Assembly (NCBI RefSeq): GCF_018977255.1
Contig: NW_024704742.1
Coordinates: forward strand, 132,930,001-132,994,000
Length of the DNA: 64,000 nucleotides
Reading direction: 5' to 3'
From: Callorhinchus milii
Taxonomy: Eukaryota
In this document: piece after piece, positions 316 through 62,128 of the stretch
Position numbering within the stretch: the first letter of the stretch is position 1
Layout: every line of letters begins with the position of its first letter
Notes under the pieces: model-generated
Databases searched by the model: none
Told to the model about the DNA's origin: nothing
What the model saw: the letters and a program-made list of their open reading frames with translations, nothing else
Translations under genes and position numbers: made by a program

Positions 316-1571
316 TCATGATGTAAACTGTTTAGTCAGCAGAGAACCCTCACTCCTTCGTAGGACTTTGTGTCAGAAATTATCAACACTGCAGCTTTCA
401 ACAGCAATCGAGGCTCATTCAATAACATAGTAGAATAAATGGACACAGGTTTAGAGTTGCAAAAGGCAATTTCAGGACAGACTGCAGGAAGGTTTTCTTT
501 ATGCAAAGGGTGGGCAAAGATTGCCAGAAAAGGTGGTTGAGGCTGGGACACTGGGACTCATTTGAAAAGCAGGCTTTTGCAGTAATGGGAGAGGGTTGGG
601 GAGGAAGGGGGAATCTAGTCACAAGTCTAGTCTGATGCTCCAGATGGGCATTAATGATCTCCTGGCACTATTTGAAAAGAGAAGGGAGTTTCTCCTGGTG
701 TCCTGGCCAACAATCCCCCAAATAAAATTGGCTGGTTTGTGGGACATTGCTGTATGCAAATAGGGTGCCGGGTACGCCTACAAAATACAAAGTCACAGCA
801 CTTTACTGTAAATTCTGTGAAGCGCTTTGAGACATCCTGATGATGTGAAAGGCGTTATGTCAAATGCAAGGATTATTATTACAGTAAAAGTCACATGAGT
901 CATTTGAGTCAGGACCATAGCATTTAATCCGTTTGACATCACGAAGCATGAGTTAGAGGCAAACTTACGTAATTTGTATAAAATCTGATTTAATCAATAA
1001 TTAATTTAATCAATAATAGTCTACAGGTTCAGAACATTTTCCACAACTCAATGCAGCTGGTAAGTGCGCTAATGGCGTTACAAGTTAGGAGATGATTTTC
1101 TTTATGAAATCGACTAGTGCAAAGAAACCTAAGTGAGTTTTGGTAGGAAACTGAATGCGGCTCAAGTGCATGTATGACTCGGGCGATTATATGATTGATA
1201 AAGATAAGATGTAAGCGAGTTTTACTGTTATTTATTATTATGGGTAGAGAAATGAACTTCTCCAAAACAGACAGGCAGGAGCAGATACTCTGGATTACAT
1301 CAGCTGCAGCTGGGAGAAAGGCAGTATCCAATTGTACATATTTTCCGTCCACTGAAATTAGCAATGGATGTCCTGATACAAGACAGTACTCTGATAGAAA
1401 GTCCTTTGGGCGTTAACCTTGAGGTGCATAACAGCGAGGAACTAATTTATTGTGAAAGAAGTTTAAGTTAAATTATCTCCGGACTTCAGAGCAAAATAAA
1501 ATGGTACAAAAAAAATTTTTCACAAAAATTTCAAACCAATTCACTCCGATTTATATCAAACTAAGTGAATA

Positions 1572-1677
1572 CAGGGTGACCAAAAAGTTGTGATTTTATT
1601 TAAAACAAAACACAAATATCATAATTTCTTTAAGAATTATTAGACAGCAATATTATCATGACTTTTTGGTTACCCTG
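1572..1677. mobile_element. Tc1/mariner-type MITE (106 bp), probably within a GALT intron
   Basis: 23-bp terminal inverted repeats: CAGGGTGACCAAAAAGTTGTGAT versus reverse complement CAGGGTAACCAAAAAGTCATGAT (20/23 identical). TA flanks both sides (1570-1571, 1678-1679) and the interior is AT-rich. Confidence 0.8.
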
Positions 1678-1746
1678 TAGTTTCTCCACTGATAGTTTAC
1701 AGAGTAAAGGAGATGCAGTTCTAGGGAAAATCGGGCACCCAGTTCA

Positions 1747-2147
1747 ATAATAACAATCCTTGCTTTTGATACTGTGTCTCTCAGGTCAATCAGAAGTCTC
1801 ACAGGATTTTACTGTTAAATGTAGTGACTTTGCATTTTGAGGGTGAATGAGGCAGTACACTGCAATGTTCTCACAAATAGCCTTGAAGTGAATGAATGGT
1901 CGATTTTGTTGGCCAAGTCACCGGGAGAAACTCCTTTCTTTTTTCAAATGGTGCCTTGGGATCCTTAACATCCATCTGAATAGCCAAAACGGGACCTTGG
2001 TTTAACGTCTCATCCAAAGGACGTCATCCTTCAATGCAGCGCTCCCAATGTAATGGATTGGTGTGTCAGCCAAGACCAAAGTGGGATTTGAACCCACAAC
2101 CTTCTGACTCAGAGGCGAATGTGCTGCTAACTGAGCCAAGCTGACAC
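1747..2147 (-). mobile_element. Deu-domain SINE with tRNA-derived head (internally deleted)
   Basis: Minus strand reads GTGTCAGCTTGGCTCAGTTAGCAG (A box)...GGGTTCAAATCCC (B box), then the Deu domain and a TTA-like tail. Confidence 0.75.
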
Positions 2148-2439
2148 CTGATCTGTTAAGCAGTGTACTATTGTACAACTTAGTGAGCCAATTACACAAT
2201 GTATTGACATACGGAAGAGTGAGACGGTTATACAGTGACAAAATAATAAGCCTATAATCCTTGCATTTCGATATTGCTCGCTATCTATCATGTCAAAACC
2301 CTCAAAGTGCTTCACAGAATTGAAAATGTAGTGACTATGTTTTTTTTAGGCAAACCTAGAAATCAATTCGTGCACAACAATGTCAGTCAAAGAGCCATGA
2401 AGTGAGTGACCAATTTACCTCTAAAAGTAACGAGCTCTC

Positions 2440-2785
2440 CAGTGCAGTGCTGGGGGAAACATTCTTGTCGGAGATGCTGTCCTTCAGAAGAGAAGTCAAA
2501 CTGCCTGTTTGTCCCATCTGCCTGTTCAGGTGGACGTTTAAGATCCCGTGGCACTATTCAAAAAGAGAAGGGAGTTTCTCTCTCTGCCGGTGTGCTGGCC
2601 GACAATCCCCCAAATAAAAATTGTGGTCACTCACTCCATGGGTGTTTGTGGGACATTACTGTGCGCAAATTGACTGCCGCATTTGCCTACAAAATACAGT
2701 CACTATACTTGACAGTAAAATCCTGTGAATCACTTTGAGACATCATCGGGACATAATGTCAAATGCAAGGATGATTGTTATTAAT
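2440..2785 (+). mobile_element. Deu-domain SINE, 5'-truncated, immediately upstream of the GALT exon 8 acceptor
   Basis: CAGGTGGACGTTTAAGATCCCGTGGCACTATTCAAAAAGAGAAGGGAG...GTTTGTGGGACATTACTGTGCGC...AATGCAAGGATGATTGTTATT. Confidence 0.8.
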
Positions 2786-2813
2786 AAAGTGTCTGTGGTT
2801 TTGGCCTCTTTAG

Positions 2814-3074
<261 letters not shown>

Positions 3075-3669
3075 TAACACCCAGTACAATTTACCATTAT
3101 ATACTGTAGTGCTTTTCACATCCAGAGGACGTCTCAAAGCACTTCATATCGTTAACAGCACCCAAGCTGGTGGGGAGGAGAGTGGGGTCGGGCAGCTAAG
3201 AAGGGTGGAGATGGAAAAAATGACTGAAAAGCAAGTTCAAAGAGACGACTTAAGGCGGACTTTAAAAGTGGGGAGGGAGGGGCGAAGAGGGGAGACTCTG
3301 GGATGGAGTTCCAGGGAGCGGGGCAGAATTGTTGAAAACCTGCATGCTGATGACATGTTAAACCGAGGTCCTGTCTGCCTGTACAGGTGCATGTTAAAGA
3401 TGCCGTGGCACCATCCGAAAAGAGAAGGTAGTTTCCTCCTGGCCAACAATCCCGCAGATAAAATAAAAATTGGTCATTCACTTTATGGCTGTTTGTGGGA
3501 TGTTGCTGTGTGCGAATCGGCTGCTGTGTTCACCTGCAATATATACACTTAACCGCAACACTTCAGAGTAAAATCCTGAGAAGTACTTTGAAGTGTATTG
3601 ACGACACTACATGAAATGCAAGATTTTCTGTTAGTATGATTCTATGAGCTAATCTATGACCTGGATTAG

Positions 3670-4480
<811 letters not shown>

Positions 4481-4621: not shown

Positions 4622-4888
<267 letters not shown>

Positions 4889-6967: not shown

Positions 6968-7333
6968 GAGTCCTATAGCATAGTAGTTAGAGCCCTCGCT
7001 TCGCAAGCGAGAGGACCCGGGTTCGATTCCTGGGCAGGGCAACACGTTAGGCAAGGTTCCTTACTCCACACGCCACTGTTTACCCAGCAACCCAATTGTT
7101 AGTCGATTGCTGGATTGCTTTTCCCCGGGTAATAATCCTTTCAAATAAATTTTTTTAAATAATAATAATTTGGTCACTCAATCCACGACTGTTTGTGGGA
7201 CACAGCTATTCGCAATTGGCTACCTCGTTTCGCCCACCAAATATACAGTCACTACATTTTACAGTATATTCTGTGACGCGCTTTGAGATGTCTCAAAGAT
7301 GTTTAATATCAAATGCAAAGATTATTATTATTA
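6968..7333 (+). mobile_element. Full-length tRNA-derived CORE-like SINE (family B)
   Basis: Head GAGTCCTATAGCATAGTAGTTAGAGC...GGGTTCGATTCC (A and B boxes), CORE-like TTAGGCAAGGTTCCTTACTCCACACGCCACTGTTTACC, the shared 3' half and an (ATT)n tail. More than 15 copies in the window. Confidence 0.9.
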
Positions 7334-15112: not shown

Positions 15113-15463
15113 GGAGTCCTGCAGCTCAATGGTTAGAGCGTTCGCCTTGTAAGCAAGAGACCTGGGTTTGATTTCCATCAGGGCAAAACGTTGGACAAGT
15201 TTCCTTAATCCACACGCCTCTGTTTACCTAGTAGTAAGTAAGAATCTGCTTGTTAGTTGATTGGCGGATTGCTTTTCCGGTGGTAATAATTCCTTCAAAA
15301 AAATAATAATATGCATGCTATTTGTGGGACACTCATGTGCACAATTGGTTTCTGCGTTTCACCCACAAAATATAGTTAATTCATTTTACAGTATATTCTG
15401 TGAAGTGCTTTGAGATGTCTCGAAGATGCGATAAGACGCAATATCAAATACAAGGATTATTAT
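15113..15463 (+). mobile_element. Full-length family B SINE inserted into a family X copy
   Basis: GGAGTCCTGCAGCTCAATGGTTAGAGC head through to the GGATTATTAT tail. The flanks (15068-15100 and 15470-15560) are consecutive parts of family X. Confidence 0.85.
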
Positions 15464-16344: not shown

Positions 16345-17170
16345 TGGAGAGGTACGGGGGGAGGTATTAAATGGGGTGTCTCAGGGGTCTGTTCTGGGGT
16401 CCCTCCTGTTCCTTATATATATTAATGCCCTAAATTCACAGATCCAGTGTAAGGTACTTAAAATTACTAAACTGTGGAATCAGAGGAGACAGCAAAGGTC
16501 TTACAAAAAAAAGGATATGCACTTGTGCTGCTAACTGGCAAATGAAATGCAATACATATAAATGCAAGGTACTGCATATAGGAACAACAGCATTACATTT
16601 GTATAGCGCCTTTTATGTTGGGAGGACGTCCCAAGGCGCTGGACAATCAGTGTTTGGCAAATACAAAATAAGAGGGAAATTTACTCCATGGATGGTCTAG
16701 CATTGTCAAAGAGCCCAGGGTATTAGTTGGCTTGTCATTTGTAATGTTAAAATAGTGCGAGGCAGAAAAAGCAGGACAAATAGATTCTGGGCTATATTTG
16801 CCAAATATGAATTGAGTTCAGTTTCCCAGAAGTCATACTGCAACTGTAAGTGCTCTGGCCAGGCTGCACCTGGAGAACTGTGTACAGTGCTGGTCGTTGC
16901 AACATCAGGGACCTGACAGCCTTGGGAGGCAGTGCAGAGGGGAGCAGTGAGGAAGATTCTCAGTGTTAGAGGAATGAGCTATGACTCTGAGGAATAGTTA
17001 GACAAGCTAGGCACTCTTCTGTCTTGCAAAGAGAGTCTCAGAGTGAACCTATTGAGCCGGGCAACATTTTAAATGGGATTGAGAAAGCAAACACAGAACA
17101 ATACTTTCCGACGCACCAAACAAGAGGACGCAGTTTAGGGTTGCAAAGTATGATTCCAGGACAGACTCCA
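16345..17170 (+). mobile_element. Decayed CR1 LINE ORF2 (reverse transcriptase) fragment
   Basis: Encodes VLNGVSQGSVLGSLLFLIYINAL (CR1 GVPQGSVLGPLLFLIYINDL motif), WQMKCNTYKCKVLHIG and RLHLENCVQCWS. It has frameshifts and a short antisense L2-tail insertion near 16583-16650. Confidence 0.85.
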
Positions 17171-21645: not shown

Positions 21646-24600
21646 ACATAAATTACGTGTGACGTGGTTCTTTATGGCATAAATTTGGTTATAACATGGT
21701 AGCAGTGTGGACATCATTCATTGTGCTTGGATATAGCTGGGTTTTGTCCTAAAATACAACAACTTGCATTTATTTAGCGTCCTTCACCCAGGGTAGCATC
21801 CTGGAGCGCTTAAAATGGCCGACTTGCCGCCAATGTCACTTCCCATGCGATGACCTGGAAGTTGTCCCTTTTTAATATACAATTGCCTTGGAGGGAGGGA
21901 GCTGATTCGTTGCGTTCGCAGGCAACAATACCAGCTATGGCACCTGTTTTGTGGGTCCCAACCACTGTGTTGTGATAGAGCTCCTCTATACAGTCAGCGG
22001 GTACAGAGCGATGAATCAAAAGAGGACTTTAAGGAAAAGTGTCAAGCTGACCACTGGAAGTTCATAACTGCTCAAAGCAACCTGTTACTCCCCACTGAAT
22101 AAACAACAGTGTAGTTGACTCGTGGTAAACAGATACAGTAATTCACTTTATCAAGTGTTATGTTTGTGTGCAGAGGGGAGGGGATAAGGAGGGTACACCG
22201 ACATTTACGCTGGGGTAAAGGGGCCATACCTAGGCATTAAGGTGAGTGTCATGGCAATTATAGCTCACATCTGGGGAGTTGGTCGTGGAAAGAAATTTGA
22301 AACAGGTTTTTCGGTAGTTTTAACCAGAGCAAAATATCAGTCATAAATTGCTACATGACTGATCAGGAGTCTGGAGCTTTTAGATAATAACATAGCTGTT
22401 TTGCCAAAAGAGGTTTCTGACTGATTAAATAACCATCTTGCTCCATCAGCAACGTGTCAATTCTTTTATCTTGTTCGGTGAATTTCGCAACTTTCTATTT
22501 ATCAACGCTGGCATATTATTTTAGGCTTTATCCCTGTCCACCTCCCCCTTCCCTGGACTCCTCCCCACTCCCCACCCCTTCCCTGCCCCGCCCTCGCTGC
22601 ACGCACTATTGCACAAAACACACAGTCACTGCATTTTATAGTAAATTCCGTGAAGCGCTTTGGGGACGTCCTCCTGATGTGAAAATCAGGGATGATGATG
22701 ATTCCCACGCTGGTGTACCAGACTGCTATCCTGTGCCCGGCCCCCTGTGACTGACCACTGGGAGTTGTGTGGCGAATGGTCTGCGGTTTTCCATTCCTCC
22801 CTGTGGGAAAGGTGTCTGGGCCACGTCTGGGATTTTCCCCGTCGACCTAGAGAAAGCCGGACTGCGTCTCCAGGGCACATCAGCCTCGCCAGCCGGCAAA
22901 ACAGGTAAAAGCCATGTTCACTGTTTGCTCAGCAGCCTGGGCTGGGCTGAACAACTTGACTCGCAACAGGAAGATTGTGAGTCTGTGTCAATAAATTGAG
23001 CCATTGCGTCTTCAAATTAAAATAGCCTCTTTTTTTTGGAGTTGGGTCTCCCAGGGTTTGAAGCAACAGCGCTGACTGACACTAACTCCATTGTTGATGG
23101 AGTTACTGTCATGTGTCATGTCTGTCTCATCAATGGGACTTGAAAGTGAATGTGTGTTTTACCCCTGCAAGCCACAGGGTAAATAATAATAATAATCTTT
23201 GCATTTGATTTAGCGCTTATCACGTTGTTCAGACGTCTGAAAGCGCTTCACAGAATATACTGCAAAGTGGATTCACTGCGTATTTTGCGGGTGAAACGCG
23301 GCAACCAATTGTGCACGTCAGTGTCCCACAAACAGTGGTAGACTGAATGACCCCAATTTTTTTTTGAGTGCTTATTACCACCAGAAAGCAATCCGCCAAT
23401 CAAAAAAAAATTGACTTGGAAGTGAATGCGTGTTTCAATCCCTACGAGCCACACAGTAAAGGGGGTTTCCTAGTCAAATTTGCTAATGGCTCATAGTTAC
23501 CTAAATTTTGCTATGTGTAAGATTGACTCAGTTGTTAGCACTTTTGGCTCTGGGGCAGGAGGTTGTTGGTTCAAGCCCTATATTGGGCTAATCATAGTCC
23601 AAGCGGCACTCCAAGTGTTGTTCTGACTAGGTGCTGTTCAGGATCCCTTGGACGTAGGTTTCTCCAGGGCACTAGCTAACGATCCTACAGATTAACAAAA
23701 TAAAGATCCTACAGATTAACAAAAAATATAATCCTGTGTATTCTGTTTCGCTCACAAAATATACTGTCAATTCACTTCGAAGTATATTCTCTGAAGCGCT
23801 TTGAGACGTCTCTTTGAAACAACCCTTCATAATAATTTCCTTACCTTCCTCCCTTCCTATCCTCCCTTTTCCCCTTACTCCCTTTCTTTCTCATTTGTAA
23901 GAATTATCGACTTAACCTGTTGATGAAGTGGGCACAAAGGCAGCATTTTTCTGCTCACTGCCAACAAGAACACCAATGAGCTGGATTTCATCTGACTCAC
24001 ACTCAGCCAACACATCAGGGCATGCCATACATTTTGACCTGCTCATGTATCTGCAAATATATGTACAGTTCATAGTTGACTTAGACCAACTGACGGCTGC
24101 TAGTCTTCACTGGGTTGGGTACTTGTACACTTCAGTCAACTGGGGATGTGGGATCTGCTTAACTTCTGGTCAATTTACCTGCAGAAAATATCACCCCAGA
24201 GTGACAGAGTCAAATGAGTGGTGAGTGACAATGTGGAAATACTTGGTTGTCCCACTGGGGGTATCTGTGGCATTTTGACAGCTTGTTATTGATAGAAATC
24301 AAAATGCAGGAAAGTACATTTGATACAGCGCCATTCAAGTCGGGAGTACATCCCAAAATGCTTCACAGGACGTACTGTAATGTAAACTGCGTGTTTTGTG
24401 GGCGAAGCACATGATTGACTGGAGCCAATTATTATTAATTTATTATTTTTCCCTCACAACCATCACAGCTTGATACTGGGGTCTAAGCTGTTTGCAAACG
24501 GCAGCGATGGTTCTGTTACCTGTTTGAGCGAGTCTCTACCTTCTAAAGCGTATGGATTGCGAGCCAAAGCTGCAGAACAAATATCTACTTTGGCAGCTCA

Positions 24601-24801
24601 ATCTGCAAAACAAACACTGCCTTTGGAAGACTTTGGGGTTTGGTTTGGATTTTTGGAAGGAGAGAGAGCGAGAGAGGGAGACTAATTTTTGCTCAGCCTT
24701 TCAGTGGCTGAAATATAATAATAATCCTTGTATTTGATATAACACCCTGTCATGTCTTCGAGACGTCTCAAAGCGCTTCACAGAATATACTGTAAAGTGA
24801 A

Positions 24802-25482
24802 CAAAATGCAAAATACTGCAGATGCTGGGAATCTGAAACAAAAACAGAGAGAGCTGGGAACACTCAGCAGGTCAGGCAGCATCTATGGAGAAAGGAAAAT
24901 GAGTCAACGTTTCGGGTCCATGACCCTTCGTCAGAACTGGGGCATGTTGGTAGGGAAAGGCTTTTAAGGACAAGTTGAGACGGGGATGCAGGACAAGGAA
25001 GACAAAGAAGATTAAAAAGAAGACAAAGGAGAGAATGTGTTAGTTGATGGGTTAAAGAGGTGATAGTGGCGTAAGACAAAAGTGGGGGTGGGTGGGTTGA
25101 AACAAAACTGGGGAGAAGCTGTGTTGCTAGTGCAGAACAGGCAACACACCAGAGAGAGAGACAAAGAGTGTCTGGGGTGATGCTTGTAATGATAACAGAA
25201 GATATCAGGGTTGACCTTGCATACAGAATGGAGGTGTTCTGCAAATCGGTCACCCAATCTGCGCTTAGTCTCCCCAATATAGAGGAGGCCACACCGTGAG
25301 CAGCGGATGCAGTATACTACAATGGTTGTAGGATATGTAAATCGCTGTCTTACATGGAAGCTGCGTTTGGGGCCTTGGATAGTGGTTTGGGAGGAGATGA
25401 ATGGGCAGGTATTACCTCTCCTGCGCTGGCATGGGAAGGTGCCAGGGAAAGGAGAGCAGCTGGTAATGCTGACGGTGGAATG
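24802..25482 (-). mobile_element. Penelope-like retroelement 3' fragment (GIY-YIG endonuclease remnant plus terminal repeat)
   Basis: Minus strand encodes PGTFPCQRRRGNTCP...VVYCIRCSRCGLLYIGETKRRLGDRFAEHL, a GIY-YIG motif with the Cys/His pattern typical of PLEs. It is followed by a pyrimidine-rich 3' region containing a hammerhead motif. Confidence 0.9.
24902..24938 (-). ncRNA. Minimal type I hammerhead ribozyme motif (PLE-associated)
   Basis: Minus strand AGTT-CTGACGA-A-GGGTC-ATG-GACCC-GAAAC-GTT-GACT. It has the CUGANGA and GAAA core, a 5-bp stem II, a 4-bp stem I (AGUU/GACU) and a palindromic ACGU in place of stem III. Confidence 0.8.
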
Positions 25483-26967
25483 AAAAGTGATCCGCCAATC
25501 GACTAGCAATCGGGTTCCTACTTACTGCCAGGTGAACAGAGGAGTGTGGAGTAAGGAAACTTCGCTAATGTTTTGGTCTGCCTAGGAATCGAACCAATAC
25601 GCTACAGGACTCCACAAATATTCTTTTGTACAGATGCTAAAAATCCCTTCTTTCTGCACATTGCTTTCATCCTGGGTGCTGCGGGTGTGTGTGGGGGTGG
25701 GGTGGGAGAGAGAGAGAAAGAAAAATGGGAAAACCAAGCCTGATTTAAGTGCTGCTGGGGAGAGGGCTTTCCTAAAATCTCCCCCAGGGCATAGAATTAC
25801 TGAAATTATCCTGTCAGATTAGTGTCAAAGGAAAGAACCTGCTCTGCTTATAATTATCCAACCTCACAGCGCAATATATATTATCCAACCTCACAACACG
25901 GTAAAATGCATAGCTGTAAAGGATTCAGCTGAAATAATTCTAGGGTAACAGAGTTAATGCGGGAATTGGTGTACTAATTTAAGACCTTTCCATCTCGTTG
26001 GGTGACAGATTGCCGTTCTGCACAGTCATTTTGACGCTGCGATTTCCGCGGGGTATTTAAAAGAAGCCGACAAGTTCTTTTGGTGGTAGGGAGAAAGTCC
26101 CTGGTATTTTTACAGCATCTTTTCTGGTCGAAATGTCTCGAAAAACTTTGCAGGAATCGCTGTCAAGTGTAGTGACGGCTTTTTCTTGGCAAACGCGCAG
26201 CCAGTTATCGAGGCGATGTCTCGCAAACAGCCATGAATAGTTTTAACTGGGGGATTGGTGACCAGGACATTGGGTGAAACTCATTTCTCTTTTCAATTAG
26301 TTCCGTGGAATCTTTAATGCTCACCTGTACAGACAGACAGATTTAAAATCTCATCCAAAATAGGGCATCTCTGACAATGAAGAGTTTCCCACCCCACCCC
26401 AACATCAGAGTGTCAGCCTCAACTATGACTGTGATTTTAAAATCCTCACATAATAATAAACCTTGCATTTGATATAGGGCCTTCGCCTCAAAGCTTTTCA
26501 CCGAATATACTGTAAAGTGAATTGACTGTATATTTTGTGGGCGAAAACATGGGACTTGAACCCACAACCTTCTGATTCAAAGGTTTGAGTGCTGTACTTT
26601 GAGCCAGGCTGAGACCTTGACTTTACACCTGATAAACAGGCAGGTTGTAAGCATAAGAAAGATATTGAATGTAATTTAAGGTTTGGTCTCACTAGCTCGG
26701 GAGAACCTCAGTTAAGATATTCATTTCTTGACAATAAATGCCTCAAATCAACTCCAAGTCAGACATAAAGAGAATATTCTGATCCTTTCAGTAAGTAAAA
26801 GGAATCTTTCAATGAAGGTTTCCAATCGGAAATCCTATTATAAACCTTCAGTGAACAATTCGTTTCACTTAATGATTTTTTTTTAGTCAGCCGGATATCT
26901 TAAACATGCAGAAACCCATTCAATGCTTAAGAGTCACATTACCCATCACCAGGCTTCACTCACTTAA

Positions 26968-27831: not shown

Positions 27832-28191
27832 AATAATAATCTTTGATTTGATAAAATGCCTTATCACGTCTTCAAGATGTCTCAAAGAGCTTCACAGAAT
27901 ACACTGTAAGGTGAATTGATTGTATATTTTGTGGGTGAAACGCAGCAGCCAATTGCGCAGAGCAGTGTCCCACAAACAGTCGTGGATTGAGTGACCAAAT
28001 TATTATTATGTTATTTTTTGAAGGGATTATTATCCTCAGAAAAGTAATCTGCCAATCGACTAGCAACTGGGTTCCTACTTACAGAGGTATGTGGAATAAG
28101 GAAACTTGCCTACCATTTCGCCCTGCTGGGAATTGAACCCAGGTCATCTTGCTTGCGAGGCGAGTGCTTTAATCACTAAGCTACAGGAATC
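27832..28191 (-). mobile_element. Full-length family B SINE
   Basis: Reverse complement of the family B consensus, head included. Confidence 0.88.
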
Positions 28192-33345: not shown

Positions 33346-33725
33346 GGAGTCCTGTAGCTTAGTGGTTGGAGCAATCGCCTCGCAAGCGAGAGGACCTGGA
33401 TTTGATTCCCGGGCAGGGCAAAACATTGGGGAAATTTCCTTATTCCACACAACCCTGTTTACCTAGCAATAAATAGGAACCTGATTGTTAGTCGATTATG
33501 GATTGCTTTTCCAAGGATAATAATCCCTTTAAAATTAATAATAATAATAATAATTTGGAAACTCAATCACGACTGCTTGTGGGACATTGTTGTGCGCAAT
33601 TGCCTGCTGCATTCCTCCCACAAAACATACAGTCAATTCACTTTACAGTAAATTCTGTGAAGCGCTTTGAGATGTCTCGAAGACATGATCAGGCGCTATG
33701 TCAAATGCAAGGATTATTATTATTT
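33346..33725 (+). mobile_element. Full-length family B SINE
   Basis: GGAGTCCTGTAGCTTAGTGGTTGGAGC...GATTCCCGGGCAGGGC...GGATTATTATTATT. Confidence 0.9.
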
Positions 33726-49799: not shown

Positions 49800-50131
49800 A
49801 TAATAATCCTTGCGTTTGATATAGCACCTTATCACATCATTGAGATGTCTCAAAGCTCTTCGCAGAATATACTATAAAGTGAATTAACTATAAATTTTGT
49901 GGGCGAAACACGTCAGGCAATTGCACACAGCTGTCTCCCACAAACTATTTAGAGAGATTATTAACCCCTGAAAGCGATCCACCAATCGACTAACAACCGG
50001 GTTCCTAGTTACTGCGAAGTAAACAGAGGCGTGTGGAGTAAGAAAACTTGCCAAAGATTTTGCCCTGCCTAGGAATCGAACCCAGGGCCTCTCGCTTGCG
50101 AAGTGAGTGCTTTAACCACCACGCTACAGGG
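49800..50131 (-). mobile_element. Full-length family B SINE
   Basis: Reverse complement of the consensus with an intact head. Confidence 0.88.
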
Positions 50132-61524: not shown

Positions 61525-62128
61525 CATTGTACTGGGACAGGGCGAAATGTTGGGCAAGTTTCATTAATCCACACACCTCTGTTTACCGAGCAGTAAGTAG
61601 GAACCCGGTTATTAGTCAATTGGTGTATCACTTTCTGGGGGGAACAATCCCTCCAAAGCAAACAAATGGAGTCCTGTAGCTCAGTGGTTAGAGCACTTGC
61701 CTCTCAAGCGAGAGACCTGGGTTCGATTCCTGGGCAGAACGAAATGTTGGGCAAGTTTCCTTACTCCACACACCTGATAATAATCTCTCAAGAGAAAAAA
61801 CAATAATAAAATTGGTCACTTAAATCCACGACTGTTTCTGGGACAATGCTGTGCGCAATTAGCTGCCTCATTTCGCCCACAAATATACAGTCACTTTCAG
61901 AATATTCTGTGAAGCGCTTTGAGACATCCAGAAGACGTGTAAGGTTTATTATTATTAAAATAAGACAAAAAAATGGTTAATCAATCCACAGCTGTTTGTG
62001 GGACACTGCTGTGCTGCGTTTCATCCACAAAATACATACTAACTCCACTCTACAGTATATTCTGAGAAGCGCTTTGAGAATTCTCAATGACGTGATAAGA
62101 CGCTATATCAAATGCAAGGATTATTATA
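61525..62128 (+). mobile_element. Head-to-tail cluster of three family B SINE pieces (partial, full 61668-61956, 3' half)
   Basis: GGGCAAGTTTC occurs at about 61551 and 61749. The tail section is repeated at 61975-62128. Confidence 0.85.

Follow-up and report, generated by a model that had tools for sequence, protein, structure and literature searches.

The minus strand of a 64,000-nucleotide stretch of Callorhinchus milii DNA (the window) was found to carry a minimal type I hammerhead motif (min-HHR) near the 3' end of a decayed Penelope-like element (PLE). Every testable sequence feature of the 2014 min-HHR definition is present. The class has been in print since 2014, and the window motif is one more example of it. 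Its anatomy supports assignment to the obligate-dimer type of PLE hammerhead. It is very likely that the family as a whole encodes a weak, dimer-dependent and probably protein-assisted ribozyme, and that the window copy is an inert relic inside a 5'-truncated, internally deleted Neptune-type PLE.

Read directly from 24938 to 24902 on the minus strand, the 37 nt are AGUU CUGACGA A GGGUC AUG GACCC GAAA CG UU GACU. Nucleotides are numbered by the standard hammerhead system, and the motif is divided as follows.

24902..24938, minus strand: the whole 37-nt min-HHR, matching the consensus of PMC4209133 (Fig. S3)
24935..24938, minus strand: helix I 5' arm AGUU, from folding; 24937 is the apparent 5' boundary of many copies in public contigs
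24927..24934, minus strand: core box C3-A9 (CUGACGA) with the extra A between A9 and G10.1
24914..24926, minus strand: helix II GGGUC/GACCC with the 3-nt loop AUG, from folding
24906..24913, minus strand: G12-A15.1 (GAAA), C15.2, G16.2, U16.1 and U17, by standard numbering
24902..24905, minus strand: helix I 3' arm GACU, from folding

Helix II consists of five Watson-Crick pairs, G10.1-C11.1 among them, and helix I of four, of which G1.1-U2.1 is a wobble adjoining the cut. Helix III is shrunk to the palindrome ACGU at 24910-24907, and the cleavage triplet is GUU, with the cut predicted between 24906 and 24905. An earlier reading of this DNA, made from the letters alone (the sequence-only reading), had given the same minus-strand sequence with a complete catalytic core, a 5-bp stem II, a stem I with one G-U pair and a stem III reduced to ACGU beside a GUU triplet; direct reading bore out all of this, and folding bore out the stems. 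The core boxes CUGANGA and GAAA and an NUH triplet are all there, and so are the single nucleotide between A9 and 10.1 and the G10.1-C11.1 pair described in PMC4209133. The extra A after A9, which had been taken for a tolerated variant, fits the consensus published there. Helix III is absent beyond the palindromic positions 15.2-16.2, and the motif lies within the pseudo-LTR, downstream of the PLE ORF and in the same sense, an arrangement repeated in all seven same-clade loci described below.

A min-HHR descriptor matched only this site on both strands of the window. When 400 dinucleotide shuffles were scanned, a loose descriptor matched in 14, and the strict one (helix I of at least 4 pairs, helix II of at least 5, GAAANNUH) matched in none. 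No other window site came within 12 mismatches of the 37-mer, in agreement with the single copy noted before. Rfam hammerhead families gave no match at gathering score over the whole window, where only six tRNA-like matches appeared, and none at E ≤ 10 over 24500-25600, where three unrelated weak matches were returned. The sequence-only reading had proposed covariance models or a descriptor as a check; the descriptor recovered the motif and the Rfam models did not.

The motif follows a GIY-YIG endonuclease remnant (25446-25205, minus strand; Pfam PF01541, E 3.9e-4, 21.1 bits, just below the cut-off of 22.6) by about 270 nt; it has the same sense, as had been stated. The surroundings of the motif were resolved into these parts.

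25481..25615, minus strand: SINE part upstream of the element, recognised by the tRNA-like heads of other copies
25205..25446, minus strand: remnant of the C-x4-C-x2-C linker and N-terminal half of the GIY-YIG endonuclease (Pfam, relatives, contigs)
24939..25204, minus strand: pyrimidine-rich 3' untranslated part of the element, spanned by family contigs
24802..24901, minus strand: remainder of the 3' terminal repeat (pseudo-LTR), from copy ends in public contigs
24712..24801, minus strand: 3' part of the same SINE family, adjoining the element 3' end

In the window copy the second linker cysteine is replaced by glycine (C-x4-G-x2-C). In a family contig from public sequencing (run X1, record 1), 373 nt stand in place of the 122 of the window, and records 1 and 3 of that run both break at 25204; thus about 250 nt are missing, including the C-terminus of the endonuclease. 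An alignment of relatives places the invariant H, E and N columns in the lost part. A longer endonuclease match from tblastn, reaching 25120, was rejected as spurious because the family contigs break at 25204. No reverse transcriptase (RT) of this element was found in the 64-kb window.

The element fragment (about 25480-24802) lies between the 5' and 3' parts of a SINE in the same orientation, and some 125 nt of the SINE middle are absent; the arrangement came about either by insertion into a single SINE or by the joining of two fragments. The SINE is tRNA-derived, about 400 nt long with an ATT-repeat tail, and dozens of full or partial copies occur in the window (6970-7041, 15115-15186, 28122-28187, 33349-33420, 50063-50131 and 61670-61742 are examples). 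Self-repeats make up 39% of the window, and a short match at 16364-16444 (plus strand) to the LINE-type RT part of protein P0021 is probably a LINE fragment.

Three further observations concern the 3' terminal repeat and its border. An ATG at 24882, after the motif, opens a 34-codon frame; it is unsupported as an ORF start, the sole match among 1.84 billion representatives being a repetitive protein, and the frame matched none of the proteins gathered in this analysis. Two pyrimidine tracts on the minus strand resemble 3' splice acceptors, one at 24937-24960, which runs into a CAG directly ahead of helix I, and the other at 24883-24900, which runs into a UAG directly ahead of that ATG; in a Drosophila element an intron ends at helix I (PMC4209133). 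Finally, 24810-24886 (minus strand), beside the element 3' end, is predicted to form a multi-branch fold closed by an 8-bp inverted repeat, which could mark the start of reverse transcription.

The nearest recognised gene encodes galactose-1-phosphate uridylyltransferase (GALT). Its last three recognisable coding exons lie on the plus strand at 2814-3074, 4622-4888 and 5713 to about 5780 (PF02744 matches; the final exon follows an AG acceptor). GALT was rejected as a host gene carrying the motif, as it ends about 19 kb away on the opposite strand. No other frame reached a Pfam cut-off among the 291 of 351 non-repeat frames that were scanned, a scan which a gene of short exons could escape. The locus of the motif is probably intergenic.

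A search with 63 endonuclease residues returned 26 relatives among 29 candidates, the four with a species name coming from rays and a skate (Mobula, Hypanus twice, Leucoraja), which points to a cartilaginous-fish host. The close relatives P0001, P0002 and P0008 have an intact C-x4-C-x2-C linker with RT motifs upstream. Among the best 120 of the 992 relatives of P0015, an RT motif of YxDD type was present in 119 and an endonuclease motif in 106; the RT preceded the endonuclease in 105, and a C-x2-5-CxxC linker was found in 101. The CX2-5CxxC linker marks both Neptune and Nematis (PMC8557442). By its linker and motif likeness the element appears to be of Neptune type, a placement in which the linker is shared with Nematis and the link to Neptune comes from likeness to the Acropora motif printed in PMC4209133.

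An alignment-based scan of genome contigs confirmed seven of 36 stretches as same-clade loci (L009-L015), at 44-49% protein identity. They fall into three families, namely five loci at 93-98% identity, L015 and L013. All seven carry a hammerhead-like core in sense, 56-130 nt past the ORF match; it is intact in two, reads CCGACGA in four and is more decayed in one. The L015 motif is one loop letter apart from the Acropora Neptune motif of PMC4209133 (Fig. S3), and this locus has in addition one relaxed antisense match without stems. In viral contigs a protein-based scan confirmed none of 55 stretches. The search for family copies gave four stretches with the downstream motif only and none with the core pattern in viral contigs, and four pattern stretches in metagenome contigs; none of these eight loci resembles the element beyond the pattern.

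Several features of these loci were observed in passing. CCGACGA (U4 to C) occurs in four of the five post-ORF motifs of the five-locus family, those of L009, L011, L012 and L014, about 105-107 nt past the ORF match, and represents a founder variant that was propagated with its core altered; a separate L010 copy has the usual CUGACGA. Min-HHRs unattached to a matched ORF were seen in L011 (2187, plus strand, and about 295, minus strand), L009 (4739, plus strand) and L010 (about 354, minus strand). The two in L011 lie in opposite orientations and have the longer palindrome ACAUGU, an arrangement that inverted PLE ends would be expected to show. The L009-L015 contigs belong to two bacterial metagenome-assembled genomes and bear animal-type PLEs with coral-like hammerheads, which suggests that animal host DNA probably lies inside those bacterial bins.

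Covariation was evaluated over seven motifs: those of the window, L015, L013 and L012, two of L010 and the second of L009. The post-ORF motifs of L009, L011 and L014 were left out as near-duplicates of L012; also left out were two L011 motifs with a longer helix III and two weak descriptor matches (L011, L014). Helices I and II showed compensatory changes: both sides had changed at seven of ten pairs, 95.6% of the cells paired against 16-44% when the pairing was slid, and the covariation score was reached by none of 500 shuffles; the set is small, hand-picked and partly related, two of its motifs are unattached to a matched ORF, and the same sequences served to draw the structure. Alignment columns 41-42 are complementary in all seven motifs (CG in six, UA in one). 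Covariation between such distant families supports the class as a whole, rather than the window copy. With the anatomy fitting PMC4209133 and same-clade elements carrying the motif at the same place with covarying stems, the identity as a dimer-type PLE hammerhead, proposed by the sequence-only reading, holds up.

The folding predictions bear on activity. In the predicted monomer helices I and II are kept and G5-A6-C7-G8 pairs with C15.2-G16.2-U16.1-U17 (probabilities of 0.87-0.99), giving a shut fold. The same fold was predicted for L015, and not for L013 or the second L009 motif. The modelled energies were -14.5 kcal/mol for the active dimer, -21.6 for a pair of monomers and -27.9 for the most favourable dimer, a mispaired one that likewise pairs the core with CGUU; such nearest-neighbour energies leave out the tertiary contacts of the core and proteins. 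When upstream sequence was added, the probability of helix I fell to 0.01-0.23. Positions 15.2 and 16.2 are joined without a loop, so a helix III requires two copies. A GUU triplet cleaves more slowly than GUC. It is a cleavable triplet (PMC3138052), and it occurs in many motifs of PMC4209133 (Fig. S3). For a Schistosoma min-HHR, PMC4209133 reports an uncleaved monomer and low cleavage of the dimer. The anole PLE hammerhead is described in PMC11167929 as cleaving only in the presence of the element's protein. The predicted energies fit this published behaviour of monomer, dimer and protein. The proposal of the sequence-only reading, that the window copy could still cleave when paired with a second one, is qualified by this poor dimer cleavage, by the predicted pairing of the core with CGUU, and by the fact that an intact core is to be expected by chance where a family is young and very abundant.

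A mechanism consistent with these data would run as follows. In a live element, tandem or partial-tandem transcripts would contain two motifs, whose ACGU palindromes could pair as a 4-bp helix III while helix I forms between the copies. The dimer would yield two cores cutting after GUU, slowly and probably only with the element's own protein. Dimer cleavage and protein assistance are here carried over from other PLEs by analogy. A lone motif could not close helix III, and here it would lock itself by pairing the core with CGUU. The window copy, without an RT, with half an endonuclease, with no partner in the window and with no sense transcript in evidence, is best regarded as a relic; its shut fold, inertness and neutrality are what the model and the state of the element suggest. 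An intact core would have been kept in such a relic because the family appears young and very numerous.

The abundance of the family was assessed in contigs of four public sequencing runs (of 24), aligned at 80% likeness, with 11,503, 3,818, 26,133 and 25,665 contigs. The summed depth in run X1 was 174,523 at 24905-24929 and 547-4,362 across the ORF remnant; the corresponding values in run X7 were 1.30 million and 3,205-44,057. These sums are not copy numbers, and they show that the 3' end of the element is repeated far more than the ORF. In X1, 8,103 of the 11,503 contigs were 90-99% alike. The only motif position among the variants listed (40 of 170 rows, the variants being unlinked) was 24921 in loop II, where G makes up 73-84% of the depth and the window copy has A; the window copy therefore seems to equal the family majority in the core. 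By calculation, 42-60% of neutral copies at 3-5% divergence would keep 17 given positions. As the motif region is very highly repeated in the public contigs, an intact core needs no selection.

The ends of the copies were then compared with the predicted cut. The 3' ends fall at 24800-24809, and loose-end consensuses suggest a second 3' end near 24830; the tail would then be about 25-30 nt long, in keeping with the PLE tail described in PMC11167929 and PMC8557442. Loose ends at 24853/24854 were rejected as true 3' ends, as their consensus runs on for about 20 nt in family sequence. On the 5' side, loose ends pile up at 24937 in three of the four runs (111, 241 and 185 contigs), with unrelated, AT-rich flanks (agreement 0.35-0.36), and six of ten opposite-strand joints end at 24934-24937 among the rows listed (15 of 199). 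No loose end was found at the cut site 24905/24906 among the rows listed (24 of 1,638). A drop in depth between the bins 24880-24904 and 24905-24929 was discarded as a sign of cut-site ends, the depth at 24899 being already low (345,840 in X1, far under its bin mean of 599,625). That the start of many copies coincides with the 5' edge of helix I rather than with the cut site should be taken as a lead and not yet as a result.

These ends are an argument for a different function, in which the motif, still of PLE origin, serves the family chiefly as a boundary mark or structural signal and not as a cutter. Under that account, a unit of about 135 nt from helix I to the tail would have uncut RNA as its template and would have spread in the manner of a SINE, as a non-autonomous element. 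The anole PLE offers a parallel: mutating its hammerhead left insertion in vitro unaffected, and RNA reads with an end at the cut site were absent (PMC11167929). However, the end pattern comes from the listed rows only, contigs of repeats fragment, local alignments may stop where families diverge, and a strong excess of 3' ends is ordinary 5' truncation in PLEs. Moreover, the catalytic boxes and the NUH triplet are kept across families, which argues for selection on the chemistry. We consider a boundary role unlikely, yet the strongest competitor of a weak, dimer-dependent ribozyme.

A bolder form of the same idea is more doubtful still. The helix-I-bounded unit of about 135 nt ending at the PLE tail might be a hugely amplified chondrichthyan element in its own right, copied from uncut RNA, with the pairing of the core to CGUU as a catch freed only by the PLE protein. 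Either a start site or a splice acceptor would then fix the 5' end of the uncut RNA at the helix I edge, where the boundary does come after the pyrimidine tract and CAG. If this were true, the ribozyme would act as a switch, gated by protein, that decides between template and processed RNA, and the family would provide a large natural data set on what PLE hammerheads are for.

Host exaptation, in which the window copy cuts a long transcript in trans together with a sister copy, is highly improbable. The core is complete beside a decayed ORF and sister motifs are abundant, but neutral survival accounts for the former, no recognised gene lies nearby on the motif strand, and folding of a trans dimer is predicted to be disfavoured. 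Pol III read-through from the upstream SINE is likewise unlikely, given that its head is deleted and that four runs of T4 or longer lie between SINE and motif. A chance match to a short motif, for which the loose matches in shuffles and the silence of the Rfam models might speak, deserves practically no credence in view of the strict shuffles and the covarying stems, and is refuted by the same position of the motif in same-clade elements.

The preferred reading, a weak dimer-dependent ribozyme with an inert copy in the window, leaves the lone copy with little importance, as a single relic of a class known since 2014. Some value attaches to the family, since the role of PLE hammerheads is still called open in PMC8557442 and cleavage was dispensable in vitro (PMC11167929). 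With its very high abundance, this chondrichthyan family lets copy ends be mapped exactly relative to the cut site. The literature search returned no description of it in sharks or rays, though the supplements of a 2026 bioRxiv preprint on animal non-LTR retrozymes (10.64898/2026.07.22.740005) may list the family.

Those retrozymes share with the window family a type I hammerhead and short, PLE-derived non-coding units, and they are reported in the one chondrichthyan sampled. They are defined there as tandem repeats of which two or more units bear a hammerhead, whereas the 64-kb window holds a single copy on an ORF remnant. The Poseidon element PAc of Anolis carolinensis (PMC11167929) has its hammerhead in a pseudo-LTR, as here, and an optional tail with two 3' ends, for which the probable second end near 24830 would be the counterpart. 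It shows no pile-up of ends at the cut site, as among the rows listed here, but belongs to another PLE clade, and its ORF starts within the hammerhead, a start that is unsupported in the window.

The closest match is with the PLE min-HHRs of PMC4209133. They share with the window motif CUGANGA and the extra nucleotide, G10.1-C11.1, GAAA, the lack of a loop 3, the palindromic 15.2-16.2, NUH, a short helix I and a lone 3' copy behind a 5'-truncated ORF; CG with a GUU triplet is also found in several motifs of Fig. S3. No cartilaginous fish was found among the 56 motifs of that figure or in Table S1 as read here, and the window family differs in its 3-nt loop II and the G-U at 1.1-2.1. Compared with Neptune PLEs such as that of Acropora digitifera (PMC4209133), the window copy lacks the RT and the C-terminal part of the endonuclease, and Gly stands in place of the second Cys in its linker. 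Its relatives share with them the C-terminal GIY-YIG after a CX2-5CxxC linker, and the motifs of L009-L012, L014 and L015 are near-identical to the printed Acropora one.
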